Shown one piece after another: positions 44,201-64,000 of a stretch of DNA of 64,000 nt. Source of the stretch: Rubripirellula sp. (lineage in GTDB: Bacteria > Planctomycetota > Planctomycetia > Pirellulales > Pirellulaceae). Made by a program: the position numbers and the translations under genes. The notes below the pieces were generated by a model. It did not search any database, had not been told where the DNA came from, and saw nothing but the letters and a program-made list of their open reading frames with translations. Location: positions 7,424,001 through 7,488,000 of the forward strand of contig OZ244207.1 in the NCBI GenBank assembly GCA_965216875.1, in the 5' to 3' direction. The number at the start of each line of letters is the position of its first letter. Position 1 is the first letter of the stretch.

Positions 44201-44292
44201 AGCAAGCCAGCCATATTCAAAACAAGCAACATGGTGACAACCAGTGTCGCCATGCCCATTGCCATTCGCGCTTTGGCGGAAAGCCGAAACAT
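41281..44292 (-). CDS. Hybrid sensor histidine kinase (TM-PAS-HisKA-HATPase-REC-Hpt-Hpt)
   Basis: FLANMSHEIRTPMN, GNAIKFT, GGTGLGL and VLMDMQMP, plus two Hpt motifs, LAHWLKGSG and LAHALKGSA. Confidence 0.93.
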   Translation of the reverse strand: MFRLSAKARMAMGMATLVVTMLLVLNMAGLLPDHRKTAMWGRCAISELVALQIRPVILQRDIHRMEGLLESVVERNDEILSGAIRRRDGELIAVVGDHQALWDTTVEVSDDRQVYVPLHAGGADWGRVEICYKPLVRRGWMGMLDQPSNRLVIMMGLFSWLVFYLYLRKMLNHIDPTGAVPGRVRNALDTLGDGLLVIDRRSKIVLANRSLAESINRTPQQMVGMEASELPWALTGEEKEFPWTRVLKSGQSVLGEIIAYKRGGRDDAIFQVSCSPVIGSGGAAQGVLISLDDVSELERTKQQLSEAKESAEAANEAKTSFLANMSHEIRTPMNAILGFTEVLRRDIEQDEGKRQKHLNTIHSSGTHLLNLINDILDLSKVEAGGLEVEQIDCAAHQVVADVITVMNVRAEEKGIWLDYQFESDIPATIQSDPARIRQILTNLVGNAIKFTEKGGVRVITKFQIEHGQNQIVFQVVDTGIGMTQEAANKIFDPFSQADATVTRRFGGTGLGLSISKRFAEALGGGIVVHSEPGVGSVFVVTVDAGAIDGVAMIRPTDEDLQVAEEEAGPLSVKLPELNVLLVDDGDENRDLLGLILTEIGAKYESAINGVEAIELATSKAFDVVLMDMQMPVMDGYTATRKLREMGYDRPIVALTAHAMHEAEDQCLDAGCSGFLSKPIEFDKLIATLSEVAGVAAGSTNVEAAPSAPSAKSAPSAPSAKSSGSEIGVSGNGSAEQRTDASNAPSNECEASSPIRSMLAERGSTFQSIVQEFVGRLPMKVSEMSVALDHGDFKQLADLAHWLKGSGPNVGLMELMEPAKQLEHHARDGKTADAGKRIEQIRSMLPRIEIGGVRPLAEVILPGDTNTQSEAPAASPSPKTEQPHQTEVPSVNQSNPSDSEPVFSTLPIEKPKFREIVVRFVDQLDARFEVIETALAANDSQQLIDLAHALKGSAASCGFSSLATLAGTIERSSRDEDFDLIPEILRELRDVRGRIEIPESRSEA

Positions 44293-46867: not shown

Positions 46868-48861
46868 TCTGGCGTTGGTGGGAAAGTACGTCAACCAAAC
46901 GTGACGATGTGGACCGGACGGCATTAGCTCGGTCGAAACGGCGACGCTTATCCAAGCCGGGTCTGATCGAGCAGGTGATTGATCAATCGAGACAGGTTGC
47001 GATGTCGCTGCGTGAAAGCTCGCACGAGGCATTGTCCAAACACACCGAACAATTGAGGCATTTTTCAGGATCGAAAGAGACCGAATTGGCTCAGATGTGG
47101 TCGCTCGCCGCCGGCGGAGTGATCGAGGCGATCCGCCAGTGTCACGGAATCGAACTCTTTGACGTCCAGATTCGCGCCGGGGTCATTGTGTCGGCCGGTG
47201 CCGTTGCCGAAATGCAAACGGGTGAGGGGAAGACTTATTCGGCGGCACTTCCGGCCTACGTCCAAGCGCTCGCGGGGCGTGGCGTGCACGTGGCAACGCC
47301 CAATCAATATCTGGCCGGTCGTGACCATGGAAAGCTACAGCCGGTTTTCGAGCGTCTCGGTATGACGGTTGGCTTGCTTGACGATCAAGCGAAACCGCAT
47401 GAAACCAAGGCTGCCTACGATTGCGACATCACCTATGGACCTGGACACGCCTTCGGGTTCGACTACTTACGTGACCAGCTTACGTTGTCGCCGTCCCAAC
47501 CCGGGCAGGTTGATGCTCCTCGATTGGGAATCAAAACGCTCCAACGCGTCACGGGGTGTTCACCCGAATCTCGTTTGCTGCAGCGAGGTTTGTACGCATC
47601 GATCATTGACGAAGTCGATCATGTTCTTTTGGACGATGCGGTTTCACCGCTGCTGCTGAGCGCGAGCGGCAAAGACGAAGCCATGGACGCTGCCGTTCAC
47701 CAAGCGGCGTGCCAACTCGCGAGTGAATTAGATGAACCCGAGTGTTACACGATCAATGGTGGTTCCGCTTCGCTGACCGACGAGGGTTTCGCCCGGGTCT
47801 ATGCAGATGAAACGATGGCCGTTCACGATCGGCTTATTCGACCCTGGCACGAGTACGTCGTCTTGGCGCTACGCGCCCGCCACGTTTTGCGACGCGATGT
47901 TGACTACGTGGTTCGCGACGACGACATCCAGATCATTGATTCATCCACGGGGCGTATTTTTGAAGACCGAACCTGGTCTGAAGGGTTGCATCAAGCGATC
48001 CAGGCGATCGAAGGTTTGCGCGTCACCACCGAAACGCTTGCGATGGCACGAATCACTCGACAACGTTTCTATCGCTACTACGAATCGCTTGGTGGGATGA
48101 CCGGGACGGCAACCGGGTGCGAACGAGAGTTCGCATCGGTCTACGGTTTGCCGGTCATGGAAGTGCCACTGCGTGTCCCGTCGCGGCGCAGGTTGTTTAA
48201 GGACTACGTGTGCGCCACGCGAGCCGAGAAAATCGCGGCCATCGTCGAAGAGACGGTCGATCTTCATGAGCAAGGCCGCGCGGTGTTGATCGGCACGCTC
48301 AATATCGCTGAAAGCTTGAACGTCGCCAGCGAACTTGCACAACAGGGGCTGGTTTACCAGCTGCTCAATGGCGTCCAGGATGCTGACGAAGCATCGATCG
48401 TCGAAGTGGCCGGGCAACCGGGGGCGATTACGGTTGCAACCAATCTTGCCGGACGTGGAACGGATATCTCGCTAGCCGAATCGGTTTCCCAAGCCGGTGG
48501 TCTGCACGTGATCGTTACCGAAAAACATTCCTTGTCGCGAGTTGATCGGCAACTGATCGGTCGCTGCGCTCGCTGTGGCGATCCAGGCACGGCTCGAGTC
48601 TACCTGTCGGCTGAAGACGAGTTGATTGAAAAACACGCTCCGTGGATTGGTCGGGCAATTCGTCGCCGCTGCGCGTCCGTCGCATCAGGGGGCGCGCCGC
48701 CATTCGAACAAGGCGAATTGGACGGACGTTTGTCGTCGGCGCAAAAGAGCCTTCAACGGGGTGAATCGGCGCAGCGATGGAACCTGCTGCAAGCCGATCA
48801 GCGAAACGAACAATTACTTAACAAGACGTCGTCGTCCCCAAGTGGATGTTGGCAGTTGTAA
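46864..48861 (+). CDS. Secondary short SecA (SecA_DEAD motor, no C-terminal wing/IRA1 region)
   Basis: EMQTGEGKT, VHVAT.N.YLA.RD, IIDEVD..L.D.A, WSEGLHQAI, GMTGTA, ATNLAGRGTDI and R.DRQL.GRCAR.GDPG. About 665 aa, ending shortly after NBD2. Confidence 0.9.
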   Translation: MIWRWWESTSTKRDDVDRTALARSKRRRLSKPGLIEQVIDQSRQVAMSLRESSHEALSKHTEQLRHFSGSKETELAQMWSLAAGGVIEAIRQCHGIELFDVQIRAGVIVSAGAVAEMQTGEGKTYSAALPAYVQALAGRGVHVATPNQYLAGRDHGKLQPVFERLGMTVGLLDDQAKPHETKAAYDCDITYGPGHAFGFDYLRDQLTLSPSQPGQVDAPRLGIKTLQRVTGCSPESRLLQRGLYASIIDEVDHVLLDDAVSPLLLSASGKDEAMDAAVHQAACQLASELDEPECYTINGGSASLTDEGFARVYADETMAVHDRLIRPWHEYVVLALRARHVLRRDVDYVVRDDDIQIIDSSTGRIFEDRTWSEGLHQAIQAIEGLRVTTETLAMARITRQRFYRYYESLGGMTGTATGCEREFASVYGLPVMEVPLRVPSRRRLFKDYVCATRAEKIAAIVEETVDLHEQGRAVLIGTLNIAESLNVASELAQQGLVYQLLNGVQDADEASIVEVAGQPGAITVATNLAGRGTDISLAESVSQAGGLHVIVTEKHSLSRVDRQLIGRCARCGDPGTARVYLSAEDELIEKHAPWIGRAIRRRCASVASGGAPPFEQGELDGRLSSAQKSLQRGESAQRWNLLQADQRNEQLLNKTSSSPSGCWQL

Positions 48862-48864
48862 TCG

Positions 48865-49797
48865 ATGGAACGGGATGCCATGCAAACGAAATATCGGCTG
48901 ATAGCCCTGTCGCTCTGTTGCTTTGCGGCGACGTTACCATGCGCGTTGCCTGCCGAGGAACTTGAGGCGTTCACCGAACCCTACAAACGCGTTGCCATTC
49001 CTGCTGCGGAAGTCGGTGTCATTGACCGAGTGTTGGTGTCCGAAGGCGACTCCGTTTCCAAAAAGCAGATGCTTGCGCGATTGGACGACCGCGTGCTGCA
49101 GGCCACCTTGCTTGTCGCGCAAGCAGCCAAAGATGCGCTTGGCAATCGACAGGCCGCAGAAGCAGACTTGAAGATGCGCACCCAACAACTTGAGAGCTAT
49201 CGCCAACTGCGCGCTCGTGGAAACGCAACGCAGCGAGAGCTGGAACGGGCCGAGGCGGATCATTTGCAGTCGCAATCTCGCCTGCAAGCGGTCAACGAGG
49301 AACTTGAAGTCAGGCGTCTTGAGTATGAGCGAGTGAAGGCGCAGATCAACCAACGACGCATTGAGTCGCCCATCGAAGGCGTGGTGGTCGAAATCGAGAA
49401 AGAAGAAGGCGAGTTCGTGTCGCCCACCGACCCCGTCGTGATGCACATTGTCCAGCTCAAGATGCTTAAGGCCGTCTTTTCAGCACCGATGTCCTCCGTT
49501 TCGGCACGCGGTCGAAAGGCCTTGCGTCCAGGTCAAACTGTCAAGGTTGTCGTTGGTCCTCAAGAACGTGTTTGTGAGGGCGTGATCGAATTCGTGTCGC
49601 CGGTCGCAGATGCCCAGAGCGCGACGGTCCGCGTCAAGATTCGCATTCCGAACGAAGAGGGCATCGTCCAAAGTGGCGCGGTCTGTCGTTGGGACATGAC
49701 TTCCGCGGCCCCCGTTGAACGGTTAGGACAAAACGTTGAACGGCTCGGACAAAACGTTCAACGATTGGGGCAAGGGGCCAACTCACAGACCAAGTAG
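48865..49797 (+). CDS. HlyD/MFP family periplasmic adaptor
   Basis: Signal peptide, GVIDRVLVSEGDSV, coiled coil, IESPIEGVV and IEFVSPVAD. Confidence 0.88.
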   Translation: MERDAMQTKYRLIALSLCCFAATLPCALPAEELEAFTEPYKRVAIPAAEVGVIDRVLVSEGDSVSKKQMLARLDDRVLQATLLVAQAAKDALGNRQAAEADLKMRTQQLESYRQLRARGNATQRELERAEADHLQSQSRLQAVNEELEVRRLEYERVKAQINQRRIESPIEGVVVEIEKEEGEFVSPTDPVVMHIVQLKMLKAVFSAPMSSVSARGRKALRPGQTVKVVVGPQERVCEGVIEFVSPVADAQSATVRVKIRIPNEEGIVQSGAVCRWDMTSAAPVERLGQNVERLGQNVQRLGQGANSQTK

Positions 49798-49818
49798 GGC
49801 AGGTCGAGATGACCATGC

Positions 49819-51375
49819 TTGCTAGGTGAAACGCAAAAAGTTCAGCAAGTGGATAATGGTGACGGCAAATTGCATGATCCGTCGATTCTGGTTGGTTCAG
49901 GCCAATTTCAGGTCCCGGTCGTTGCTGGAAACACGTCAACCAATCAGGCTGACAACACGGCCAATCCGACAGCACACAACGGGCAACAAACGACAGGCGA
50001 ATCGGAGCTTGTCGTTCGTGCCGAGCAGGCGGAGTTAACCGCCCTCGTCTTGGCGACGATCGTCGAAATCCACTGCGAGATGGATGGAGCGGCGAATCTT
50101 GAGAATGCCGCCGCCGCAGCAGCGCACGCAGTGCGCGATCAGCTTGCAGGAAAATGCGTGTTGGTGGGGTGGAAATCGGAGGACTCAGCAGGCATCAAAC
50201 TCGTTGCTCAGGCTGGGAGTGGTCCGCCCCTATCGCAAGAAGTACATCGGCTTGCCGAAGCAGCGTGCGAAGAAGTGCTGGCTCGAGGCACGTTAACGAT
50301 TTGGCCGGCACAGAAGCACGCGAGCCGTCATGCGTTGATGGCGGTGTCGCAATTTGGTCGTCGTGTTCATTGCGAATCGATGGTCGCAGCACCTTTGACC
50401 GCTGGTCGAGATGGTCGGGCCGGTGTCTTGATTGCGGTCGACTGTGAGTTTCCAGCTGTGGCCGAGCGTCTGATCGACGGACTTCGAGATCCACTCGGTT
50501 CAAAACTGGACGCGTATGCAGAGCAGCGCCCCAGTCGAATTGAATCGCTCGTTCGGCAAACCGTGAATCTGTTTCGTGGCGAACGACGCAAGTTCTTTTC
50601 GCTCGCGTTGACGGCGATCACCTTGTTGATGGTTTTGCCAGTGCGATACCGCATTTCAGGAAGCTGTGAATTGCAACCGGTTCAACGACGGTTTGTCGCA
50701 GCGCCCTTTGACGGTCCTCTCAAAGCAGCGATGGTGCGCCCCGGCGATCTCGTGCTCGAAGAACAGTTGTTGGCAACGATCAATCCGAGAGAGATCGAAT
50801 ACAAGCTTGCCGGCGTTCGCGCAGACCTTTCGAGAGCCCAGCAAGAGCAAAAAGGAATGATGGCCGACCACGACATCGCGGGCAGCAAACTCGCCGCACT
50901 CGAGTCGGCGCGACTGCGATACGAAAAAGAACTGCTCGAATACCAACGTTCCCACCTCGAGATCCGCAGTCCGATCCGCGGCATCGTGGTGAGCGGTGAT
51001 TTGGAAGAAGCGGAAGGCACTCCGCTTTCTCGCGGTGAAACATTGTTCGAGATTGCCCCGCTTGGCCAGATGGTTGTCGAAGTGGCCATCCCGGAAGAAG
51101 ACTTCCCGCATGTTCGGCGCGGGATGCCCGTCGACTTTTATGTTTACTCGCTGCCCAATCGAAAGCTGTCGGGGACACTTCAGCGAATTCATCCCCGTGC
51201 CGAATTGCGCGACCATGACAATGTTTTCATCGGCGAAGTGTTCGTTAGCGATCCTCGAAACCTCTTGCGGCCCGGAATGCGCGGCAAAGCGACCATCACT
51301 GGCGATCGTCACTCGCTCGGTTGGAATCTATTTCACAAGGCATACCACGCCGTTCGAACCTCACTCGTGCTCTAG
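49819..51375 (+). CDS. HlyD family adaptor with N-terminal cytoplasmic (GAF-like) domain; start uncertain
   Basis: One central TM, VAAPFDG.L....VRPGD.V, IRSPIRGIVVSGDL and LRPGMRG. Only TTG/GTG starts are available near the 5' end. Confidence 0.82.
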   Translation: MLGETQKVQQVDNGDGKLHDPSILVGSGQFQVPVVAGNTSTNQADNTANPTAHNGQQTTGESELVVRAEQAELTALVLATIVEIHCEMDGAANLENAAAAAAHAVRDQLAGKCVLVGWKSEDSAGIKLVAQAGSGPPLSQEVHRLAEAACEEVLARGTLTIWPAQKHASRHALMAVSQFGRRVHCESMVAAPLTAGRDGRAGVLIAVDCEFPAVAERLIDGLRDPLGSKLDAYAEQRPSRIESLVRQTVNLFRGERRKFFSLALTAITLLMVLPVRYRISGSCELQPVQRRFVAAPFDGPLKAAMVRPGDLVLEEQLLATINPREIEYKLAGVRADLSRAQQEQKGMMADHDIAGSKLAALESARLRYEKELLEYQRSHLEIRSPIRGIVVSGDLEEAEGTPLSRGETLFEIAPLGQMVVEVAIPEEDFPHVRRGMPVDFYVYSLPNRKLSGTLQRIHPRAELRDHDNVFIGEVFVSDPRNLLRPGMRGKATITGDRHSLGWNLFHKAYHAVRTSLVL

Positions 51376-51381
51376 GCTGGT

Positions 51382-53532
51382 ATGTCGACGCGGGATCCAA
51401 ACACGATCGATCTGACTCAGGCGACACTTCGGTTGGCCGACGATATCGTTGTGTGGCCCGTGTCCGAACGTGGTCAGACCGTCTATCGCATCGAGATTCC
51501 TTCGTTGCACAAGTTCTTTCGCGTCGGCTACGAAGAGTACGTGTTCATTTCACTGCTGGATGGCAAGACGACACTTGCCCAAGCGTGCGGGTTGGCGGCT
51601 CGGCAACTCGGAAGCGATGCGCCGACCTCCAAACAAGCGGATTCGATACAGCGTTGGTTGCTACAGAATGGTCTTGCCTATTTGCCGCAAGATGCGCCAC
51701 CGGTTCGTGATACGCGATTACAGGCAACGGGCCATCGCACGTGGGCAAACCTCAATCCGTTTTGGATGAAATTCTCGTTGCCCGCCAGTCAACGCGTGCT
51801 CGCGCCGCTCGCGAAACGATTGAAGTTCCTTTTCAATCCGTTGTTGGTCAGCGTTGGGTTGGCGGTTATCGCAGCGGCGATCTTTATTCTTTGCGTGAAC
51901 TGGAAGTCGTTTTCCGAAAGCGCAAAGGAGATCATCAGTCTGAACAATTGGGCATGGCTGTTGGGCACCTGGGTCGCACTCAAGGTCGTCCATGAGTTGG
52001 CGCACGCGATTGCTTGTTATCGGCACGGCGGCGTTGTTCGCGAATCGGGTGTTGTGCTGGTGCTGTTCGCCCCGTTGGCCTATGTGGACGTGACCAGTTG
52101 TTGGCGTATGAACTCGCGTTGGGCGCGAATCGCCGTAGCGGCGGCAGGTATGTACGTCGAGTTGGTGATCGCCGCACTGGCAATCATTGCATGGACATTC
52201 GTCGACTCGGCGAGCACCAAGTTCTTTCTCTACAACTTAGTGCTCTCGGCCGGACTGTCGACCGTGTTGTTCAACGCGAACGCCTTGATGAGGTTCGATG
52301 GTTACTTCATTTTAGCCGACCTGATCGATGTTCCGAACTTGTATGCCGAAGGGTCACAGTCGGTGCGTCGGATCGCACGACGATTGGTGCTGGGGCTGCC
52401 CTCCGGGAAGACTCACTTGGTGGGATGGCGGCGGCATTTAGCAACGGCCTATGGTTTTGCATCGTGCATTTGGCGAGTGACCATTTGCGTCACCTTGGCG
52501 ATCACGGCCGCGACGATGTTCGCTGGCGCCGGGATTGCCATCGCGGCATTGGGTGTGGTGATGTGGTTGGGCAAACCGACTCGGCAAGTGTGGACCACAA
52601 TGAGTGACCTTTACCGCCAGGACCGCGCACGCTTTGTTCGTGCTTTGGTCGTGAGTAGCGGATTGCTCGGCGGCGGATGGTTGTTGTTTTGGAAAATCCC
52701 ACTGCCCACCGCTGTCCACGCGCCGACGGTTGCGATGTATCGCCCAGAGACGATTGTCCGCAGCCAGGCGACGGGCTTCATACGCGCCGTCCACGTACAC
52801 AACCAGCAAGAGGTCAAGCAAGGTGACCTGTTGATCGAGTTGGAAAATCGCGAACTCGTCAAGCAATACCAACAGCTCAAGCTGACCATCGAGCAAAACG
52901 AAATCCGGCTCCGCAAAGCAGCGGGTGACCAGGATCCATCGTTGCAGTGGGTGCTCAAGCAGAATCGCGTGGCACTTGACGAACAATTGGATCAACTCCA
53001 ACCGCAGGTCGATGGATTGAGCGTACTCGCACCGCGAGACGGTTTTGTTGTCCAGCGTGATTTAGCGATGAAGGTCAACAGCTACGTCCACGAAGGTGAC
53101 GCATTGCTTGTGGTGGCAAGCCATGGCGATAAAGAGCTGATCGCACTGGTTGATCAGGATTCGATTGACCAAGTCCGCTCGAGCATTGGCACAAAGGTTC
53201 CCATTCGAACGGCAAGCTATGAGGTGGCGCAAGGCACCTTGGGGCGGATCGAGCCTCGCGGCACGTTGCGATTGCCCAATCCGTCGCTGGCGGCGGCCGA
53301 AGGAGGTCCGCTTGAGGTGCGGCGGGTCGACGAAGCTGGCCTTGGCGATCAAGCCTACCAACTATTGACGCCCCATTTTCAAGCTCGGCTCGAGGTCAGC
53401 CCCGACGTTGCTCAAGAGATTCCGGCGGGGATGCGAATGACGACGATGTTGGGTTACCAAAATGATCCCATGGCAACGCGAATCAAGAAAACGGTTCGTC
53501 GGCTTTGGCATGAAGCCAACCAGCAGCAGTGA
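51382..53532 (+). CDS. M50 (site-2) metallopeptidase-HlyD fusion with PqqD/RRE-like N-terminus
   Basis: KVVHELAH (HExxH), AYVDVT, AAGMYVE and FNANALMRFDGY, with multiple TMs and a C-terminal biotinyl-lipoyl/coiled-coil region. Confidence 0.88.
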   Translation: MSTRDPNTIDLTQATLRLADDIVVWPVSERGQTVYRIEIPSLHKFFRVGYEEYVFISLLDGKTTLAQACGLAARQLGSDAPTSKQADSIQRWLLQNGLAYLPQDAPPVRDTRLQATGHRTWANLNPFWMKFSLPASQRVLAPLAKRLKFLFNPLLVSVGLAVIAAAIFILCVNWKSFSESAKEIISLNNWAWLLGTWVALKVVHELAHAIACYRHGGVVRESGVVLVLFAPLAYVDVTSCWRMNSRWARIAVAAAGMYVELVIAALAIIAWTFVDSASTKFFLYNLVLSAGLSTVLFNANALMRFDGYFILADLIDVPNLYAEGSQSVRRIARRLVLGLPSGKTHLVGWRRHLATAYGFASCIWRVTICVTLAITAATMFAGAGIAIAALGVVMWLGKPTRQVWTTMSDLYRQDRARFVRALVVSSGLLGGGWLLFWKIPLPTAVHAPTVAMYRPETIVRSQATGFIRAVHVHNQQEVKQGDLLIELENRELVKQYQQLKLTIEQNEIRLRKAAGDQDPSLQWVLKQNRVALDEQLDQLQPQVDGLSVLAPRDGFVVQRDLAMKVNSYVHEGDALLVVASHGDKELIALVDQDSIDQVRSSIGTKVPIRTASYEVAQGTLGRIEPRGTLRLPNPSLAAAEGGPLEVRRVDEAGLGDQAYQLLTPHFQARLEVSPDVAQEIPAGMRMTTMLGYQNDPMATRIKKTVRRLWHEANQQQ

Positions 53533-53583
53533 TCGTCGCACGCCGCTTGATCGGCGCACCTGTTCTCAAATCCGCCATGTCGC

Positions 53584-54606
53584 TTAGGAGAGCGCGGCGC
53601 GATCTTCCAACGCCGAACGTACCTCGGCAAATTGCTCGGCGTTGCGTTCGAAAGCATCCACAACGGCCGGGTCAAATTGCTTGCCGCGTTCGGCAATGAT
53701 CATCTCGCAAACCTGCTCGTGGCAATAGGCATCCTTGTAGACGCGTTTGGACGCAAGAGCGTCGTAAACATCGGCAAGCGAGACGATGCGACCGCAGAGC
53801 GGAATGTCTTGGCCAGAGAGTCCGTGAGGGTAGCCGCGACCATCCCAACGTTCGTGATGGGATTCGGCGATATCACGAGCGACGGTCAAAAAGCTCGCTT
53901 CGGGATGGGCGTCCAGTGTCGCCGAAAGCGTTTCTCCGCCGATGATCGTATGCTCCTTCATCTTTTCGTATTCTTCATCGGTCAGTGACGACGTCTTGTG
54001 AAGGATCTCGTCGGGGATGCCCACTTTGCCAATGTCGTGAAGCGGGCTGGTCGAGTAGATCGCCTCGATGTAGTCGCCATCGATCTGGTCTTGATAGGGA
54101 CCGTTTTGCGAAAGGTCCACGGCGAGCAGTCGACTGTATTCACGGACGCGTTCGAGGTGCGCACCCGTTTCGGCATCGCGTGTTTCGGCGATGTTCGCGA
54201 GTGCCAAAATGGTCACATCGCGGTTTTCGAGTGACAGCACACGTTCGCCCACACGCAGTCGCACGCACAGTTCGGCAGGTTCGACGGGCTTGATGATCAT
54301 ATCGTCGGCGCCCGCATCAAGCGCCGCGACGGTGTCGTCGGTCGAGTTCCGCGCCGTGACGAGAATGATGTAGATGTAGCGGCCATAGTGCCTTGACCGG
54401 ATGGCTCGACAGAGTTCAAGGCCGGACATTTCAGGCATGTTCCAGTCCGAGACCACCAATCGGTAGTTTCCGGTTCGAAGCATGACGAGCGCTTGGTCGC
54501 CGTCGTCGGCACAATCGACTTCGTAACCAGCTTCAATCAACATGTCAGCGTGCAGTTCTTGGATGATGGGATCATCATCCACAACCAATACTCTTGAGTT
54601 CTTCAT
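53584..54606 (-). CDS. REC-HD-GYP cyclic-dinucleotide phosphodiesterase (RpfG-like)
   Basis: REC (VVDDD, SDWNMP, KP), ETGAHLERV, LHDIGK, HHERWDGRGYP and ADVYDALASKRVYK. Confidence 0.94.
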   Translation of the reverse strand: MKNSRVLVVDDDPIIQELHADMLIEAGYEVDCADDGDQALVMLRTGNYRLVVSDWNMPEMSGLELCRAIRSRHYGRYIYIILVTARNSTDDTVAALDAGADDMIIKPVEPAELCVRLRVGERVLSLENRDVTILALANIAETRDAETGAHLERVREYSRLLAVDLSQNGPYQDQIDGDYIEAIYSTSPLHDIGKVGIPDEILHKTSSLTDEEYEKMKEHTIIGGETLSATLDAHPEASFLTVARDIAESHHERWDGRGYPHGLSGQDIPLCGRIVSLADVYDALASKRVYKDAYCHEQVCEMIIAERGKQFDPAVVDAFERNAEQFAEVRSALEDRAALS

Positions 54607-54615
54607 TGTCTTCTT

Positions 54616-57600
54616 TTACCCCACGGCTTCCGTCTGGCAGAGGTCGGTATCCAACTGCGTTGATTCAACGTATTTGTTAAAGCGGTCGATTTGTCGCCCC
54701 AAGGAATCGAGCGTTGATGTTGCGTCATCGCCGAGTTCCGCTTGTTCACCAAGGTCTTGCAGCGTGGCGGCATCCTGTTCGATGGCTTCGGCTCCAAGCG
54801 ACGCGGCGACGCCCTTGAGGGCGTGAGCACGCTGTTTGAACCCTTCGGCGTCGGCATCCGCGAGGCACCGTTCCAGTTCGGCCATGTCGTCGCCGAGGCG
54901 AGAATGCAAACGGTCAATCAGCTTCTTTGCCAACGGCTGTTTTCCGTTGCAGCGTTGCAAGAGCGATTCGACATCCAAGACCCGGAACGCGTGTTGGGCG
55001 TCGGATGACTCGTCCGTTTGAACCGCATCTGACGCTTCAGTGGTCGCAGATTCTTGGTCCTGCGGTTGGCTGGGAGTCAGTGCAAGATTTTGCGGCGAAT
55101 CGGAGTCGACCTGAGCCTGCGATCGATCTTGCGCAATGCACCGCTTGATCGTGTCGACCAATTGATCAGCCTGTAGCGGCTTGCTTAGGTAGTCGTTCAT
55201 TCCCGCGTCAAGACAACGCCGGCGTTCGCCCGGCATTGCGTTGGCAGTAAGCGCGACGATCGGAATAGGACGGGAGGCCTTTTTGTTTGATTCGATCTGA
55301 CGAATGATGCGAGTCGCTTCCATGCCGTCCATTTCAGGCATGTGCCAATCCATCAAAACCAAGTCATACTGTTTGCGCTTGACCATTTCGACCGCTTCGC
55401 GGCCGTTGTCGGCAACGTCGCACTGATAACCAAGCTGCGAGAGCATTTCGGTGACAACCATTTGGTTGATCTCTTGGTCCTCGGCCAAAAGGATGTTGCC
55501 ACGGTTTTTGGGTGTGTCCTCTTGCTTCGCTGCGTAACGTTTGGTCCGCTTTTCACCGGTCAGGCACTGCAACAGTTCTTTGGCTCGCACGGGCTTTTCG
55601 ATGAAGTCGTCGAACCCGTCATCGCAGAGTTCTTCGACACTTCGACAATGACCAAGTGGGACCATTGCCGTCAATTTGGTGGGCGAACTATCGCGTTCGT
55701 TGCTGAACACGTGAGCGAGTGAGGTCGCGGAATCGTCGGTGAGTGCGGCGTCCACCAACGCGAGATGATAGGGCACATCACTCGCTTTGGCCTTGCGTAG
55801 TGCGACCAGGGCATCGATCGGGTCGGCGACCACGTCAGCTTCAAGACCCCAGTCAATCAAACGCATCCGAAGCGATTCGCAGACCGCTTGGCTGTCATCG
55901 ACGACAAGGACTTTTGTGCCTTGGATGCCCTCGGGCAATTTGAGCGTTTCGATGGTTGATGATTCGAGTTTGGCAAGCGTGACCGTGAATGCGAACACCG
56001 AACCTTCACCCAGGACACTGGTCACTCCGATGTGACCGCCCATCATTTCGCAAAGTTGTTTGCAGATTCCCAGGCCCAGTCCTGTTCCGCCGTAACGTCG
56101 CGTGGTCGATGCATCCGCTTGTGTAAAGGCTTCGAAAACTCGATCGAGCTGCTCTTCAGGGATTCCGATGCCTGTATCGCGAACTTGGAATTGAACGCAT
56201 ACCGATTCGTCGGTCTCTTCTTGTTTGACCACGCGAACATGGATCTCGCCCTGCTCAGTGAATTTGATCGCGTTGTTGGTCAAGTTATTCAAGATCTGAG
56301 CCAGTCGGCCGGGGTCACCCGAGACTGACATCGGGATCGATGGGTCGATCGAGCAGATCAATTCGACTCCTTCACGACATCGGTGGGCAACCGTGCTGAT
56401 GACCGATTCGATCATGTGAATTGGATGAAACTCAATGTGCTCGAGCTCAAGTTTGCCAGCTTCGATCTTTGAAAAGTCGAGGACTTCGTTGACCAAATGA
56501 AGTAGGGAAACGCCTGAGTATTGAGCGGCTTCGGCGTATTTCGCCTGCTGGCGATCAAGATCCGTTTTGAGCAACAGTTCATTCAGGCCGATCACACCAT
56601 TGAGTGGTGTTCGGAGTTCATGTGAAATGTTGGCCAAAAACTCACTCTTAGCTCGGCTAGCCAGCTCGGCTTCGGCGCGGGCCTGTTCGAGTTGTTCGTT
56701 GTATGCGGTCAGTTGTTGTTGCGTTTGCTTGAGCGTTGCAATGGTGCCATTGAGTTCGCGCGTGCGATCGGCCACCTTTTGTTCGAGATTCGCATTCAGA
56801 TCCGTGATCGTTTGATGGTTCGATTCCATGTGCGCAACCATTAAGTTGAATTGGCGCGCAAGCCGGTCGATCTCGTCGTTCCCAGTGGGCAACAGCCGCC
56901 GAGAGAGATCGCCTTTTCCAACCAAGTCCATCGCTTTGACCAAGTTGGCAACGCGGTAGGCAATCGAGTCACCTACCACGGTTGAGTAGACGACTCCCAA
57001 GACGATAGCGGTGATCGTGATGAACACACTGTGTGTGCGCAGCGCGTCGATCGCTTGTTCTTGGGTTTCGGGATGGTTGATCATCTCCGAAGCGCGTTGG
57101 CTGGCAACGGTGCCAATCATCAACGCCGTTGTGGCGATGATCAGCGTGAAGCAGAGACGCATGCGGAAACGAAGCTTACCGGGTCGTACTTTTTCGTAAT
57201 TGATCGCCACGCCGCGGCGGAGCAGGAATCGAATCACCGCCTTCATGCAGTGTTCGACGGCAAAGAAGTGCGACATCAACGCCATCGATATCGCAATGAA
57301 GACCGCAACCGTGATGCTGCCCATGATCATCACCGACGCGCCGTCGACGACTTTCAACACGATAAGGACGGGAAGCCAAGTCGACGCGGGGACCAACCAT
57401 GCTTCGTTGCGATGATGACGCGATGAGAATTCGACCGCTTCGCGACCAGCATGGTCACCAAGTTCTTGGTCAACCTCGTCGCCCCGAGTCAATCGCTTGA
57501 TTGCTTCACGCAGATGGCGAGTTTCCCACTGGGAAAGTAGCAACGTCAATGCGCAGGCAACTGCCGTCACAATCGCACTGGTGATGCGGAAGTGCATCCG

Positions 57601-57783
57601 CGTCTCGTGCGGGATCTCCATCGTGAATTCGACGTAGTAGATCACCAACAAGCCGCCCGAGATTCCGAACAGCCGTGTGGCGATCATCATCACCAGAATG
57701 AAATGGTGCCCCAAGTCCTCGAGCCATCGATCGACCCGCGAAGGGCGCTCGATGAGTTCGGCAGTCGGATTGCTTGAGGTCAT
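54616..57783 (-). CDS. Hybrid sensor kinase (about 6 TM-HAMP-HisKA-HATPase-REC-REC-Hpt)
   Basis: Multi-TM N-terminus, HAMP (GDLS......[14 protein letters not shown]), [14 protein letters not shown], two REC domains and Hpt AHALKG. It ends 9 nt upstream of the HD-GYP gene. Confidence 0.93.
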
Positions 57784-58317
57784 GAATGTGCCAGGGGATG
57801 GCGTAGTGGGGACATTTTGGGGATGTCAGGTGGGCAAACATCATCAACGCAAAAAGTGATGTGCTTTGGCTCGCGTCCCGACTTGTGGCCTACCCTTGCA
57901 GTGTGGTTGGGTCTGGGAACCACACCCCCGAGGGTTGCGGCAATGACGCTTGAAACGGTTGCCAACGCCATCGCATCGGATTGCCAATGCTCGGCATTCG
58001 TCGTGGGAACGCGGACCGAAAGGAAAATAGGTCACCGCGCATCGTGAGCAAGCCAACCGGGATCAAAGAGATAACAGTCTTTGATAGCAATTCGTAAGGA
58101 GTAGCGATTGCGTTGAATCGTCCGGTTTTTTCGATTCTGAGCTCAAGTATCGGTTAGATAGCGTACGACGGTTAATGACAGAGACGAGCCGCTCCCCACA
58201 CGGTTCGTGCGCTCCGATGTTGTCGGGCACTGCTGCGCGAGTTCTGTGGGGCGAGGAAACGGCGGCAATGATTCGTTCGTCAACAACACGACACATTGCA
58301 ACAGGCTGGCATGGGCG

Positions 58318-59448
58318 ATGCGTAACCTTGCATTCTTGGGGCTCATTCTGATTAGTTCGCTGGCACCCGTTTGGGGCCAGGAGCTGGTTGACCTATCGAT
58401 CGACGATCTTCATTTGGCGTCTTCTCTCGAGGATGCGGCATCGGAATCTGAGTTTGTTGACTTCGTTGCCTGCGAGTTCGATCAGTGCGACACCTGTAGC
58501 GGGGTATCGTGTCGATGTTCAAAGCGTTTTCGCGACCGTTTACATGGCAGCGTTGAAACGCTCATCGTGCGTCCTCACTTTAGTGAAGCGGTTGCTTATG
58601 CAGCGGGGTCACAGACGGCCACAACGTTTAACATTGGCGCTCGGCCTATCAAATTTGATTACCGAGGTGGTATTCGCGCAATGTTTGGTCTCGACCTTGC
58701 GCGTCACTCCGATTCACTGCGCTTCACCTACTCCTACTTGCGAGGGGATGTTTCGATAAGCAGCGCGAACCTGGCGGCCAACGAATTCATTGTGGATCCT
58801 TTTGGAAACGTTGTTGGGTCGGTCACGATCGTTGATCCATCGGACGCGCGCTTTGGGACGACGATAACTGGGGGGGATGCGATTCAAACGCGATCGACCG
58901 TCGACGTTGATGTGTATGACATCGACTTTCACCGCATCTGGGGTGACGATCGGTGTTGGGAGGTTGCGCTCGACGCGGGTATCCGCATTGCGAACGTCAA
59001 ACAGACGTATCATTCGCTGGCAACAGCCGGCGCAACAACCGCCGGGTTTGGCTCGTTTTTCGCGGAATTTACGGGCGCTGGGCCACATTTGGGACTGCGT
59101 GGCACGCGTGCAGTTGGAGCGAAAAAACGACTCGCGTTTTACGGATCAACCCACACTGCGCTGATGCTTGGTGACTATGACGTTGTTTCGGGAAACAACA
59201 TTGGGGGTGGGGCGTTTGTTGCAAACCAAGACAACAACCAGCGTCGTACCATTGCAACGATTGAAACGGAACTCGGCGCGCGTTGGCGTGTTGGTTCGCG
59301 TTTAGATCTTGCCGCAGGATGGTTGTTTCACTTCTGGAATGACATGGGTGTAAGCGGCGGAACATTCAGCGGACTCTTCAACGGCGCTGATGATTCAAAC
59401 AACATGACGTTCGACGGCGCGTTTGTTCGCGCAGAGTTTCGTCACTGA
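58318..59448 (+). CDS. Outer membrane beta-barrel (Lpg1974/BBP7-like planctomycete porin)
   Basis: Signal peptide MRNLAFLGLILISSLAPVWG, a Cys-rich linker, amphipathic strands (F.GAGP.LG) and C-terminal FDGAFVRAEFRH. Confidence 0.75.
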   Translation: MRNLAFLGLILISSLAPVWGQELVDLSIDDLHLASSLEDAASESEFVDFVACEFDQCDTCSGVSCRCSKRFRDRLHGSVETLIVRPHFSEAVAYAAGSQTATTFNIGARPIKFDYRGGIRAMFGLDLARHSDSLRFTYSYLRGDVSISSANLAANEFIVDPFGNVVGSVTIVDPSDARFGTTITGGDAIQTRSTVDVDVYDIDFHRIWGDDRCWEVALDAGIRIANVKQTYHSLATAGATTAGFGSFFAEFTGAGPHLGLRGTRAVGAKKRLAFYGSTHTALMLGDYDVVSGNNIGGGAFVANQDNNQRRTIATIETELGARWRVGSRLDLAAGWLFHFWNDMGVSGGTFSGLFNGADDSNNMTFDGAFVRAEFRH

Positions 59449-59806
59449 TTTTAAAACGTTAACAATTAGAGAAACTCGCCGTATCTCTACTAAGCGAGTT
59501 GCGCCCCACCCGCCGAAAATTTCTTTCGCGACTTTCCGCAAATGTGTTGGCATGTCGCGCGCCTTTGGCGTTCAATCGGTGTAACAAACAGCGTCCGTGC
59601 ACGAAACGGTAACGCGGTTTGATCCGGTTATGGGGCACGCAGGTGTGTTGATCCAACACATCTGATCCATGAACCGCCAGTGGTTTCCCTTGCCCTGTGA
59701 TCGGTGTGACCTAGCTTTTAGCTGGTGATGTTCGAAGCGAATCGATTACATCACGTGTGCTGAAACCGAGGCACATTGCGCACTCCCACACGCAAGGTAC
59801 GACTAA

Positions 59807-60901
59807 TTGACAGCGCCCAGCACAGAAACCACGCGACCGGCTGGCATGGATGCAAGCACCTCGCAATCGGAACCATTGACCATGCTCTCGCAAGTAAGTG
59901 AGTTGGTTGATGAGGAACTCGCCAGCGTCGACTGGAGTCAAACCTTTGACCTCTCGGCCGATCGAATTGAACGGGAAGTGACTGCGCTCGAGAAGGTGCG
60001 GTTGAGCGACGAGATTGAGTATTGGGTGAACCGATACGGCGAGGTCGGCGAGCGTCATCCCTATTTGTGGGCTTGGTGTCGACAAGGGGTCGAGCTGACC
60101 ACGTTGGACAGCGTCCAAGACGAACACTTCGACAGGGTGTGTGACACCAAGCTGCTGGGCGTCATGTTTGACGTGCTTGTCGATGACGTCGCAGATCAAG
60201 GTGGTGACAAGGAGCTGCTTGATCAGCTGATCGCGATCACCACGGGGACTTGTCACGCTCCGAATACTGGTAATGAACAGACAGACGCGTACGTGACGCT
60301 CGCCATCGATGTTTGGCAGGAGATTCAACGACGCGTCCACTCGTTGGCTCGCCACGCCGAGTTCGCCGATGTGCTCGCCTACGACTACGCACAGTTGATG
60401 AATGCGATGCGGTATTCGCATCTGCTCAACAAGACGCCGTCGATGTTGAATCTGGCTGAACACGATCTGTACTTGCCTCATAACATGCACATGATGGTTT
60501 CCGCCACAATCGACTTGATGGCCTCGCCTAGCTTCGACGCCAGCGAAATCGGGCGGCTTCGCGAGGCGATTTGGCATTCTCAATACATGGGGCGAATTGG
60601 AAATCTCGTTACCACATGGAAACGCGAATTGCACGAGGGCGATTACACCAGTGGTGTGTTTGCTCATGCGGTGATTCATGGGCAACTTTCACTTGACCAA
60701 CTACGGGGTGGCGACCGAGAAACCGTGGCTCGTTCCATCGTTAACGGTGGACACGAAGATCATTTTTTAGCGAAGTGGCAGCAACATCGTCGCGATTTGA
60801 TCGGACTGCAAAAGGCGATCGAGTCAGTTGACTTGAAGCCGCTCATCGAGGGGCTTCAACGATTGATCTGTTTGCACTTGGCTAGCCGCGGGCGCAAGTA
60901 A
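59807..60901 (+). CDS. Class I terpene synthase / isoprenoid-synthase-fold protein (divergent)
   Basis: All-helical-looking protein of about 340-364 aa with DDVAD (DDxxD, nt 60182-60196) and RIGNLVTTWKRE (NSE/DTE-like, nt about 60593-60628). It lies directly upstream of ispH. The start could be 59807, 59846 or 59882. Confidence 0.65.
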   Translation: MTAPSTETTRPAGMDASTSQSEPLTMLSQVSELVDEELASVDWSQTFDLSADRIEREVTALEKVRLSDEIEYWVNRYGEVGERHPYLWAWCRQGVELTTLDSVQDEHFDRVCDTKLLGVMFDVLVDDVADQGGDKELLDQLIAITTGTCHAPNTGNEQTDAYVTLAIDVWQEIQRRVHSLARHAEFADVLAYDYAQLMNAMRYSHLLNKTPSMLNLAEHDLYLPHNMHMMVSATIDLMASPSFDASEIGRLREAIWHSQYMGRIGNLVTTWKRELHEGDYTSGVFAHAVIHGQLSLDQLRGGDRETVARSIVNGGHEDHFLAKWQQHRRDLIGLQKAIESVDLKPLIEGLQRLICLHLASRGRK

Positions 60902-60913
60902 AGGAGACCCAAC

Positions 60914-61894
60914 ATGAAGATCATGCTTGCAGCACCGCGCGGTTTCTGTGCCGGTGTCAGGATGGCAACCGAGAGCCTGAAGAGGGCTCTCGATCTTTAC
61001 GGCGCCCCCGTCTTGGTTTATCACGAAATCGTCCACAACAATTGGATCGTCGACCAATTCGAAAATGCTGGTGTCGTCTTTATCAACGACATCAATGAAG
61101 CACCACGCGGAAGTGTCGTGATGTTCAGCGCTCACGGGGTTGCACCCGAGATTCGACAACGTGCTGCTGAGCTTGAGTTGACCACGATCGATGCGACCTG
61201 CCCACTGGTGCGTAAAGTGCACGACGAAGCAACTCGCTTCTCGCAGCAGGGCTTTACCGTCTTTTTGATTGGGCACGCTGGTCACGACGAAGTGGTCGGC
61301 ACGCTCGGCATTTCTGATCGTATCCACTTGGTCGAATCGATCGATGACGTCGATCAACTCACGGCAGAAGATCCCAGTAAGACCGCGTATGTAATGCAGA
61401 CGACGCTGAGCGTTGATGATTCGCAGAGAATCGTCGATCGTTTGCGTGAGCGTTTTCCGAGTGTCGTCGCGCCACCGAAGCAGGACATCTGCTACGCGAC
61501 TCAGAATCGCCAAGAAGCGGTCCGCGAGCTCGGACATGAGGCGGATGTCGTCTTGGTGGTAGGCAGCACGACAAGTTCTAACAGCACTCGTCTGAAGGAG
61601 CTTGGCGCCAGTCTCGGGCGTCCTGCCTATTTGGTAGATGGCCCCGACGACATTGATCTGAATTGGTTCACAGGCGATGAAACCGTGTTGATCACAGCGG
61701 GAGCGAGCGCACCGGAAATCTTGACGCAGCGCTGCGTCGACCGCTTGGTCAAAGCGTTCGGTGCGTCGGTCGAGGAACGTTTGCTGCGGGTCGAGCACGC
61801 GCAGTTTCCGTTGCCCATTGAGCTTCGCGAAGCGGCGGCTGCGAAGGGCTACTCCCTGGACGCGACCAACACGAGCTCGAACCTGCTTGTCTGA
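60914..61894 (+). CDS. ispH: 4-hydroxy-3-methylbut-2-enyl diphosphate reductase
   Basis: PRGFCAGV, HEIVHN, FSAHG, DATCPLV, GHAGHDEV, QTT, DICYATQNRQ, SSNS and TAGASAPE. All three Fe-S Cys are intact; AAGGAG RBS. Confidence 0.97.
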   Translation: MKIMLAAPRGFCAGVRMATESLKRALDLYGAPVLVYHEIVHNNWIVDQFENAGVVFINDINEAPRGSVVMFSAHGVAPEIRQRAAELELTTIDATCPLVRKVHDEATRFSQQGFTVFLIGHAGHDEVVGTLGISDRIHLVESIDDVDQLTAEDPSKTAYVMQTTLSVDDSQRIVDRLRERFPSVVAPPKQDICYATQNRQEAVRELGHEADVVLVVGSTTSSNSTRLKELGASLGRPAYLVDGPDDIDLNWFTGDETVLITAGASAPEILTQRCVDRLVKAFGASVEERLLRVEHAQFPLPIELREAAAAKGYSLDATNTSSNLLV

Positions 61895-61918
61895 GTCTCG
61901 TTAATGGTTCTCTTGCCC

Positions 61919-62054
61919 GTAGCTACCTTCGTCAGAAGGTGGACTGGGTTGGTAACCTGTCTCCATCACCGACAACGCTCTGGCGAGCGTAGCTACGGTG
62001 CTTGTTCAAGGTCGCTCTCGACTACCCCACGCTCTAGCGAGCGTTGCTTGCTAC
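61919..62054. repeat. GTAG-type REP doublet (same family as 9343-9418)
   Basis: GTAGCTACCTTCGTCAGAAGGTGG...ACGCTCTGGCGAGCGTAGCTAC, plus a degenerate third copy CCACGCTCTAGCGAGCGT. Confidence 0.8.
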
Positions 62055-62393
62055 GGCGTCTCGAAGTTCGGCCCCCAGACGTCTCTGCGGCTGATTCTCA
62101 CGTCGTTGATAAGAGGTTCGGATTAGCTGGACCTCGCACGCCTCTGTTGGCGTGTCAGCCTCCCCATCGCTACCGCTGCGAGGGGATTAAGCTGCAACGG
62201 TTAGGTTTGCGTCGCGGTCGCTGCTTTTGCGATCTCAAGCGACCGCAGTGATCAATCCGATTCCAGTTGCTAGACACGCGTCAATACCTGCAGCACGCCT
62301 ACCGTCTGAAGAGTCAGCCGAGGCTGTGTAATCAGGTATGAACCTCCCACACCCCAACCTAAGCCGCAAACTTTACATGATCGCACAGGTTCC

Positions 62394-63692
62394 ATGAATC
62401 AATACCGTTTCAAGTCTGTTGTCGTCTGCCTGACGCTATTGGCGAGCATGCCGACCCTTGCACATCGAGCACACGCGGACGGTGTCATTCGGGACGGTCT
62501 TGGCGCGATATCCATCGGGCGTGGCGGTACGAACATTGGACATTCGGACAATGTCGCGATCGTGCTTGAAAACCCTGCGGGCATGGTCAACATTGCCAGC
62601 GAAAAGATGGGTGGGATTGGTGTCGAACTGTTGCGAACCGACATCGACTATTCCGACCCGATGAACAACACGAGTGCGGAAGTCCAGGTCTACCCTGTCG
62701 GTCAAGTTGGCTATGTCAAACGGGACCCAATGGGACTCTGGGCGGTCGGATTTGGCGTCTTCGCACCCGCTGGATTTGGTGCAGAATGGAACGTCAACCA
62801 CGCGGTGTTTGGCCCGCAACGTCAAAAGTCGTTCGGCGCGTTGATCAAGATTCTGCCGGGATTCTCGGTTCGCATGACAGAGAAGCTTTCCGTTGGTGCG
62901 GGACTTGGCGTCGCGGTCAGTCGTACGGAACTGAGCGGTCCGTTTCACTTGCAAAGTGGACCACCGCCCTTGCCCGGTGCACCAACGTTGCTTGACATGG
63001 AAGCGACCGGAGCGGCGCTCGCGTGGAATGTGGGATTGCAGTATCAGCTGTCCGACAAAACGACTCTTGGCCTTTCCTATGTTGGCGAAACCGACGTCGA
63101 GCACTCAGGTGATGCGACAGCAACCGTTCCAATTCCTGGGTTCGGTTTGCAGACCGGTGATTTCGACGCTGATGTCAACCTTGCTTGGCCGCGGTCACTC
63201 GGGATCGGGCTGGTTCATTCACCTTGTTGTCATCATCGGTTCTCGGTCGATGCGATCTGGTATGACTGGTCCAGCGCCTTTGACGACGTCGAATTGACAT
63301 TGTCGAATCCATCGAACCCGATCTTCCTCGGTGTGTTGGGGAATTCGTTCACGGACCTGTTTCCACTTCGCTGGCGAGATTCGGTGTCGGTCCGAACCGG
63401 GTATGAGCACTTCTTTGGCAATGACAAAGTGCTGCGTACGGGGTATGTCTACCATCGAAACCCGATTCCCGACGCGACGCTTACCAATTACATCCCTGCG
63501 ATTCTCGAGCACGCGTTCTCGGTCGGCTATGGCCAGAAGGTCTGCGGCTGGAATGTGGATTTGGCGTACCAGTTCTCTTGGGGTGCTTCGCGGTCCGTGG
63601 GAACGAGCGCCATTCTTGGTGGCGACTTCGACAACAGCAGCGTCGACGCCGAAGCTCATTGGTTTGCGATCAACGTCCAGCATCGACATTGA
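62394..63692 (+). CDS. FadL/OmpP1/TodX family outer membrane transporter of hydrophobic compounds
   Basis: Signal peptide and hatch-like G.GA.SIGRGGT....DN......NPAG, plus GFGVFAPAGFG, WRDS.S.R.G.E and LRTGY.Y..NP.P. Confidence 0.85.
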   Translation: MNQYRFKSVVVCLTLLASMPTLAHRAHADGVIRDGLGAISIGRGGTNIGHSDNVAIVLENPAGMVNIASEKMGGIGVELLRTDIDYSDPMNNTSAEVQVYPVGQVGYVKRDPMGLWAVGFGVFAPAGFGAEWNVNHAVFGPQRQKSFGALIKILPGFSVRMTEKLSVGAGLGVAVSRTELSGPFHLQSGPPPLPGAPTLLDMEATGAALAWNVGLQYQLSDKTTLGLSYVGETDVEHSGDATATVPIPGFGLQTGDFDADVNLAWPRSLGIGLVHSPCCHHRFSVDAIWYDWSSAFDDVELTLSNPSNPIFLGVLGNSFTDLFPLRWRDSVSVRTGYEHFFGNDKVLRTGYVYHRNPIPDATLTNYIPAILEHAFSVGYGQKVCGWNVDLAYQFSWGASRSVGTSAILGGDFDNSSVDAEAHWFAINVQHRH

Positions 63693-63896
63693 TCCCGACG
63701 CCCGTATCAATGACTCAATCGAACGATGGTTCGATTGCGTAGACATGCGTCCAACAACTGCGGGTGAATCTTGATCAATTTGTTGTGATCGTGCGGTCGC
63801 GTAGATATAACCAGATTGGTATTCCGAGCTTACTGATCGTGTGTTTGGAATCACGCAACCGAGACGAAGCAGCATTGATTGACGAGACGACCTGTT

Positions 63897-64000
63897 ATGA
63901 AACGCTCATATACCTTCGGCGGCAAGACCGTCGAGTTGGAAGCGGTCCCCGATATGTTGGGCGTTCGCTTCAGCGAACCGGCGCCCTACAGCGCCCGAGC
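63897..64000 (+). CDS. 5' end of a CDS running off the window (product unknown)
   Basis: ATG at 63897 with an open frame MKRSYTFGGKTVELEAVPDMLGVRFSEPAPYSAR to the edge. Confidence 0.5.
   Translation, partial: MKRSYTFGGKTVELEAVPDMLGVRFSEPAPYSAR

Follow-up and report, generated by a model that had tools for sequence, protein, structure and literature searches.

What is a gene with a terpene synthase fold doing beside a membrane-bound histidine kinase in a planctomycete? The question is raised by six genes at 53584-63692 of the window, the whole stretch of 64,000 nucleotides (nt) of Rubripirellula sp. that we have analyzed (contig OZ244207.1 of assembly GCA_965216875.1, positions 7,424,001 to 7,488,000). 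A first-pass annotation had proposed that they form an isoprenoid signalling circuit linked to cyclic di-GMP (c-di-GMP). All six are real open reading frames (ORFs), arranged as it described in two divergent units: a hybrid kinase and an HD-GYP gene on the minus strand, and genes for a porin, the synthase, IspH and a FadL-type channel on the plus strand. We find that many planctomycetes share a module whose fixed core is the synthase together with the sensor domain of the kinase; the HD-GYP protein represents one output among several, and the porin is an accessory. Our reading is that the cell makes a terpenoid, likely a sesquiterpene alcohol, which would be sensed within the membrane by the cognate kinase, and we give it a probability of about 0.58.

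The synthase (59807-60901, plus strand, 364 amino acids) belongs to an unannotated family. Comparison of its sequence with Pfam, NCBIfam and PDB, also with profiles, gave nothing useful, and the PF19086 profile has no match in the genome. The predicted structure (pLDDT 87.2) is all-helical, with no strands. Its best VIA structure matches include 7e4o (Z 21.7, rmsd 4.1, 265 aligned residues), 6oh6 (Z 21.5, rmsd 3.0, 272 aligned) and the N-prenyltransferase DabA (6vkz, Z 20.5, rmsd 3.5, 278 aligned). Enzymes of class I fold fill all 50 VIA rows, with Z values of 17.2-21.7, and Foldseek concurs. The terpene synthase fold proposed for this gene is borne out by the model, which matches class I terpene synthases at a Z of about 21.

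The characteristic motifs are also present: R83, D122, a DDxxD motif (D126DVAD130) and a second metal motif of the NSE/DTE type (N266LVTTWKRE274). We have followed them in 149 distant representatives, counting at each position the rows aligned there. The first metal motif is kept (D126 in 140 of 144, D127 in 142 of 144, D130 in 137 of 144), and so is the second (N266 in 145 of 148, T270 and E274 each in 146 of 148). The metal ligands are thus found in 95-99% of the aligned representatives, and R83 in 135 of 136. D122 does not vary among 34 close rows, yet of 144 wider rows only 25 have it, a hint that the clades may differ in their products. Judging from the model, the protein is likely a class I terpene synthase with both metal motifs intact.

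A characterized archaeal enzyme gives some idea of the product. The beta-bisabolol synthase A0A5E4I9B1 (EnzymeExplorer) is active on farnesyl diphosphate (FPP), and its motifs are R24, D63, D67xxxD71 and N221TLNTWPRE, according to the accessible part of its description (10.1101/2024.01.29.577750). Both proteins have an Arg 43 residues and an Asp 4 residues before DDxxD, share the pattern N-x-x-x-T-W-x-R-E, and are each made of one alpha domain to which Pfam assigns no family. The Asp of the archaeal enzyme, the counterpart of D122, has been proposed to activate water (same source, same part). They differ in the spacing between both motifs, 140 residues in the window protein and 154 in the archaeal one, which in that part of the source is described without a sensor, a transporter or a signalling role. 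By analogy with this archaeal relative, the product of the window synthase would most likely be a sesquiterpene alcohol. A profile of distant members reaches proteins of Thermoplasmatales and haloarchaea, which align to the window synthase at 34-40% identity with E values of 1e-54 or better; a haloarchaeal protein annotated as "terpene synthase family protein" (P0373) has 40% identity. The whole family comprises 663 clusters at 50% identity (E up to 0.001), and spans planctomycetes, myxobacteria and archaea.

Is the synthase linked to its neighbours? Scanning species genomes yielded 93 confirmed synthase loci, of which we kept 80, nearly all titled Planctomycetota. Up to 10 kb of context was taken on each side, and many loci end early; 42 of them have full context (at least 5 kb upstream and at least 8 kb downstream). 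The homologous sensor with six transmembrane segments (6TM) is found in 73 of the 80 loci, ispH in 49, FadL in 38, HD-GYP in 20 and the porin in 12. The corresponding figures for the 42 full-context loci are 39, 32, 29, 16 and 7. Among the seven loci without a sensor, L028 ends 346 nt downstream and L029 ends inside the sensor. The first-pass annotation had suggested a search of this kind, and had noted that its idea would fall if no conserved linkage appeared; such linkage is in fact found, joining the 6TM kinase, ispH and FadL to the synthase across planctomycete orders and classes. The porin does not hold as a fixed part of the circuit, with its presence limited to 12 of the 80 synthase loci.

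A survey of 61 related genomes, less biased than a reverse search with the sensor, gives the same picture. The synthase is found in four of them (G000, G017, G041, where it appears twice, and G053), and the sensor, matched beyond its HAMP region, is found in the same four, adjacent or within one cluster. Eight other genomes match only the HAMP region. Since synthase and full-length sensor share the same 4 of 61 genomes, their linkage is far beyond chance. Among 401 genomes of the phylum, the synthase is present in five and the sensor in two, both of which have the synthase.

The kinase (54616-57783, minus strand, 1055 amino acids) is made up of the 6TM region, HAMP, HisKA, HATPase, two REC domains and Hpt, according to Pfam, and has the phospho-acceptor motifs HELRT, VLMD and AHALKG. 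Its residues 1-272 (56968-57783, minus strand), with six hydrophobic segments, are the candidate intramembrane terpenoid receptor. The sensor domain belongs to no clear Pfam family. Its model has a pLDDT of 88.9; searching with this fold returned matches to HAMP and to helical structures of a generic kind only (best Z 9.2), and a PDB profile search matched HAMP regions only. Conservation peaks in TM1 and TM5 (0.69), with the conserved polar residues R37, Y50, T219 and Q229, and falls to its minimum in two short loops on the outer side (0.36 and 0.39). A ligand bound within the membrane would be expected to leave such a pattern.

A lead to a named domain comes from Atlas, whose third match for the sensor (score 0.94) is a cluster in which MASE10 makes up 40% of the members. 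Pfam lends this lead no support: of 38 families for 53 sensor members, the 25 listed do not include MASE10 (PF20970). MASE10 and the sensor both have six transmembrane segments followed by HAMP. In the part of the source available, MASE10 precedes HAMP, HD-GYP, cyclase and PP2C domains and has loops in which Cys, Ser and Trp are conserved (10.1101/2021.11.05.467447), whereas the sensor described here precedes kinases, and its outer loops 1 and 2 are poorly conserved.

Comparison of phylogenetic trees shows how closely synthase and sensor are associated. We have compared patristic distances from FastTree trees, built from 122 loci with a long enough synthase and 114 with a long enough sensor, after dropping identical synthases; the pairs are not independent, and the correlations carry no p-value. 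The synthase-sensor correlation is 0.85 (n=90), compared with 0.64 for synthase and FadL (n=38) and 0.38 for synthase and ispH (n=54). In 79 of the 90 loci the kinase core following HAMP could be compared as well: the synthase correlates with the sensor at 0.84, and with the core of the same polypeptide at 0.17. Of 76 splits, the sensor tree shares 51 with the synthase tree and the kinase core tree 36. Host phylogeny, for which RecA serves as one short marker, gives correlations of 0.16 and 0.18, as against 0.81 for synthase and sensor in the same 23 genomes (30 were queried, two had no RecA, two had split or short matches only, and four partial RecA frames were dropped). High values for synthase and sensor, and low ones for RecA and kinase core, show that this pair travels from host to host as one. 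The sensor stays with the synthase while the kinase core is exchanged, and at least three architectures are found: 6TM-HAMP-HK-REC-REC-Hpt, 6TM-HAMP-HK-REC-HK and a short 6TM-HAMP-HK.

This exchange bears on a different explanation, in which the kinase responds to an unrelated cue, such as the state of the membrane or of nutrients, by turning on production of a terpenoid that is not its ligand and serves in defence, in surface behaviour or in tuning the membrane. An operon regulator of this kind would be expected to retain its output side, and it is the sensing domain that remains with the synthase (r 0.84 versus 0.17, at least three architectures). In favour of this explanation, some synthases do look like a regulated output. 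Among 75 representatives chosen from the 150 listed and scanned for fused domains, PilZ is found in nine (one of them REC-PilZ) and a cyclic nucleotide (cNMP) domain in five, which suggests that second messengers control these terpene synthases. Distant members of the family sit with cytochrome P450, flavin (FAD) oxidoreductase and methyltransferase domains, and the strong boosting of precursors described below suits bulk production. On balance we consider this explanation unlikely. Examples of synthase-fold domains fused to PilZ, REC-PilZ or cNMP are L074:9428-10921, P0147, P0203, P0204, P0234 and P0266; the L074 fusion adjoins a divergent type I polyketide synthase.

If the kinase does sense the terpenoid, it might do so within the producing cell only, gauging isoprenoid flux or membrane load. 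The channel is relevant here. FadL channels pass hydrophobic molecules, and the window gene (62394-63692, plus strand; Pfam Toluene_X, E 4e-30) belongs to this family, with 105 bits for PF03349 against a cut-off of 29.7. Its five PDB matches out of five are the hydrocarbon channels TodX, TbuX or CymD, and the gene is single-copy in the genome. Such a dedicated hydrocarbon-type channel occurs in 29 of the 42 loci with full context, and its tree follows that of the synthase (r 0.64), which argues against mere self-monitoring. The pairing of synthase and sensor fits self-monitoring equally, 13 of the 42 loci lack FadL, and a module present in 5 of 401 genomes of the phylum is rare. All in all, we find a purely internal role quite improbable.

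Two known systems resemble the proposed sensing of a self-made terpenoid. In Bacillus ComQXPA, as described in the part of PMC4008528 available to us, an isoprenyl transferase (ComQ, PF00348) adjoins a multi-TM kinase (ComP, PF07730), with a ComX pre-peptide of 52-73 amino acids encoded between them. The window shares the neighbourhood of an isoprenoid-using enzyme and a multi-TM histidine kinase. In contrast to the system in that source, the synthase has no PF00348 or any other Pfam match, the kinase has 6TM, HAMP and HisKA (PF00512) instead of 8-10 TM and HisKA_3, and the module of the window has no ComA-type regulator. A ComX-like peptide was considered and rejected because of the spacing: fewer than 150 nt separate the synthase stop from the sensor domain in 74 of 89 loci, with a median of 64, and among these 89 loci the clades have no small ORF in common there.

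The precedent of ComQXPA (PMC4008528, same part) nevertheless gives some weight to a third possibility, that the protein is a prenyltransferase acting on a small metabolite, similar to DabA or ComQ, or a non-catalytic partner of the kinase which binds prenyl diphosphate. DabA (6vkz, Z 20.5) nearly ties with the cyclases. Both metal motifs, however, are intact and match those of an active cyclase, and there is no room for a ComX-like peptide between synthase and sensor, so we regard this possibility as very unlikely.

The other system is Rpf/DSF of Xanthomonas, to which the first-pass annotation had compared the locus. There a lipid-signal synthase (RpfF) sits beside a multi-TM hybrid kinase (RpfC) and a REC-HD-GYP protein (RpfG). 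The likeness holds for the logic, since the window also has a hybrid kinase with Hpt followed by REC-HD-GYP. It does not extend to the synthase: RpfF is a crotonase-type enzyme which makes a fatty acid, and the window protein is an all-helical class I fold without strands, so membership in Rpf/DSF was rejected. In addition, HD-GYP is optional here (20 of 80 loci), while ispH and FadL belong to this module. The module is neither an Rpf/DSF nor a ComQXPA system. Its proposed overall logic is that of synthase-receptor quorum sensing, known from Rpf/DSF, from ComQXPA and from CqsA/CqsS of Vibrio.

Several observations weigh against sensing of a self-made terpenoid. Enzyme activity, product, ligand binding and cell-to-cell action are all predictions from sequence, and kinship to A0A5E4I9B1 appears from its printed motifs and from other archaeal matches. 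No prenyl-chain synthase family recurs among the neighbours, so context does not fix the length of the substrate. The synthase occurs without sensor in L033, L040, L071, L074 and L077, and three of the five synthase-bearing genomes among the 401 (G188, G068 and G236) have no 6TM sensor. FadL is missing from 13 of the 42 full-context loci, as already said, and HD-GYP from 26. Some divergent synthases lie beside P450 and an FAD enzyme, or are fused to a methyltransferase, as in natural-product clusters. The reverse search with the sensor alone finds the synthase in 41 of 45 metagenome loci, a figure biased by a profile made from synthase-adjacent sensors and by several metagenome loci that repeat genome loci. 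Three of the four loci without synthase begin within 38 nt of the sensor frame; the other, L126, has a sensor and about 690 nt upstream with no synthase. Finally, neighbouring genes that travel together co-diverge too.

Two kinds of sensor-less loci may be described here. Divergent members with P450 and FAD enzyme neighbours or with a methyltransferase fusion are found in L108:8123-11731 and L109:8796-10661. A locus of G188 (L111:7172-17382) contains FadL, a synthase with a degenerate DXS domain, a Ser/Thr kinase-AAA-TPR-GAF-histidine kinase, REC and REC-HD-GYP: it is the same logic with another sensor.

Where would the substrate come from? IspH supplies isopentenyl and dimethylallyl diphosphate (IPP/DMAPP). 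The ispH gene of the cluster (60914-61894, plus strand; Pfam LYTB, TIGR00216 over cut-off), coding for HMBPP reductase, begins 12 nt past the synthase stop, and its product has Cys12, Cys96 and Cys193. Because the genome has another ispH (G000:C1:5345319), with dxs and ispG also elsewhere, the cluster gene is a spare copy, with a predicted role as an extra supply of IPP/DMAPP. Three polyprenyl synthases (PF00348) are found in the genome, all outside the module.

Related loci have supply genes of several kinds: ispH, ispG, ribB-like or an intact DXS fusion is found in 62 of the 80 loci, and among long loci in 37 of 41. Long extensions at the N-terminus, mostly DXS-like, are found on the synthase in 41 of the 80 loci; eight of these extensions retain the catalytic His and the GDG motif, and many others have lost both. 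The degenerate domain is still kept as a synthase fusion in L055:8303-10906, L061:1853-4660 and others. In nine loci of the degenerate-DXS clade we also observe a small leucine-rich-repeat-like ORF (L072:18088-18330 and eight related loci). In the clade with intact DXS, synthase and sensor are separated by genes for an FAD oxidoreductase and a divergent IspH (L048:5692-7359, L151, L154), which hints at a modified product.

A RibB paralogue is found in 18 of the 80 loci (for example L015:8517-9347). Among the 64 loci with enough upstream DNA, whose members are not independent because of kinship, it is present in 17 of 30 with an unfused synthase and in none of 34 with a fused one; P0122 is a RibB-synthase fusion. 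Mutants of E. coli RibB make DXP (1-deoxy-D-xylulose 5-phosphate) and bypass dxs, according to the available parts of PMC3424233 and PMC8791446. The paralogues keep G108, and most of them are without the Thr of the T-A-F segment found in housekeeping copies. As a lead only, judging from these residues, they may be a natural DXS bypass from ribulose 5-phosphate to DXP. The window locus has neither a DXS extension nor a RibB paralogue.

The output of the module is variable. In the window, the gene following the kinase by 9 nt (53584-54606, minus strand; Pfam Response_reg and HD_5) codes for a REC-HD-GYP protein, a predicted c-di-GMP phosphodiesterase. Its motifs are intact (HDIGK at 190, HHERWDGRGYP at 250-260), and its best PDB match is the c-di-GMP phosphodiesterase 4r8z (E 5e-44). 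Some c-di-GMP gene is found in 45 of the 80 loci and in 30 of the 41 long loci: HD-GYP in 20, PilZ in 12, GGDEF in 8 and a weak GGDEF-like domain in 7. The link to c-di-GMP claimed earlier stands in this general form, not for HD-GYP in particular: c-di-GMP is common as an output but not constant.

Our reading would then work as follows. FPP or geranyl diphosphate (GPP) would be provided by polyprenyl synthases elsewhere in the genome, and IspH of the cluster would raise the precursor supply. The synthase would convert the prenyl diphosphate to a small oily terpenoid, for which the FadL-type channel would be the way across the outer membrane, in a presumed direction of transport, and which would bind, inside the membrane, to the sensor with six helices in the adjacent kinase. 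The kinase relay would switch the HD-GYP protein and change c-di-GMP, presumably in a density-dependent way. A broader proposal, to which we give slightly less than an even chance, is that these loci represent a class of terpene quorum sensing: a mobile synthase-receptor pair with clade-specific terpenoid autoinducers, a new intramembrane receptor and interchangeable phosphorelay or c-di-GMP outputs, self-fed by a spare IspH and by a fused DXS or a RibB paralogue, the latter as a shortcut from ribulose 5-phosphate to DXP.

Bacteria make many terpenes, whose purposes are mostly open. With this module there are now an enzyme, a candidate receptor, a channel and a read-out to work with, which makes a role of bacterial terpenes testable. 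If our reading is true, a chemical class would be added to bacterial signals, a new family of membrane receptors could be used as terpene biosensors, and a large unannotated synthase family of planctomycetes, myxobacteria and archaea would gain a context. The new parts are the synthase family, the unnamed sensor and the terpenoid as a candidate signal, while the overall logic is known. In the literature searched, mostly outside subscription papers, we have found no description of the synthase-sensor module, with nothing in the accessible parts of PMC8895600 and PMC10663253, and no bacterial receptor for a self-made terpenoid in what we could consult of it.

The layout of the window locus is exceptional. 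In 89 of 89 other de-duplicated loci with both genes the sensor lies 3' of the synthase on the same strand, at 500 nt or less in 81; the divergent arrangement is a rearrangement peculiar to this genome. The outer-membrane beta-barrel, or porin (58207-59448, plus strand), is PF05150-like (Pfam E 5e-13); from the sequence its likely start is the ATG at 58318, followed by a signal-peptide-like stretch. It is separated by 358 nt from the synthase, and ispH by 499 nt from fadL, so a single plus-strand transcript should not be assumed. The second gap contains a REP-like palindrome (61917-62000, inverted repeat I1) which is found genome-wide, with 319 blastn matches in the genome, and is not specific to the module. 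The six genes match the genome in base composition (GC 0.55-0.57 as against 0.563).

Contigs of run X1, whose status as RNA is a guess, span 59602-60010 and 60168-60908, a weak hint that the synthase is transcribed. Of four runs, X6 and X9 gave no match, and parts without coverage are uninformative. Rfam gave no match at E up to 1 for positions 53000-64000, counts of promoters and terminators are below those of shuffled sequences, and the intergenic repeats offer no candidate for an operator.

On the HD-GYP side, the genes at 44744-53532 form a single run coding for TolC-like, short SecA-like and two HlyD-type proteins and an M50 peptidase-HlyD fusion, preceded by a divergent PAS hybrid kinase at 41281-44292. 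This export cluster was considered as a part of the module and rejected, with no match in any related locus fetched. On the other side, a gene for a subtilase-trypsin-like double protease follows fadL directly (L113:3880-6366, from window position 63879).

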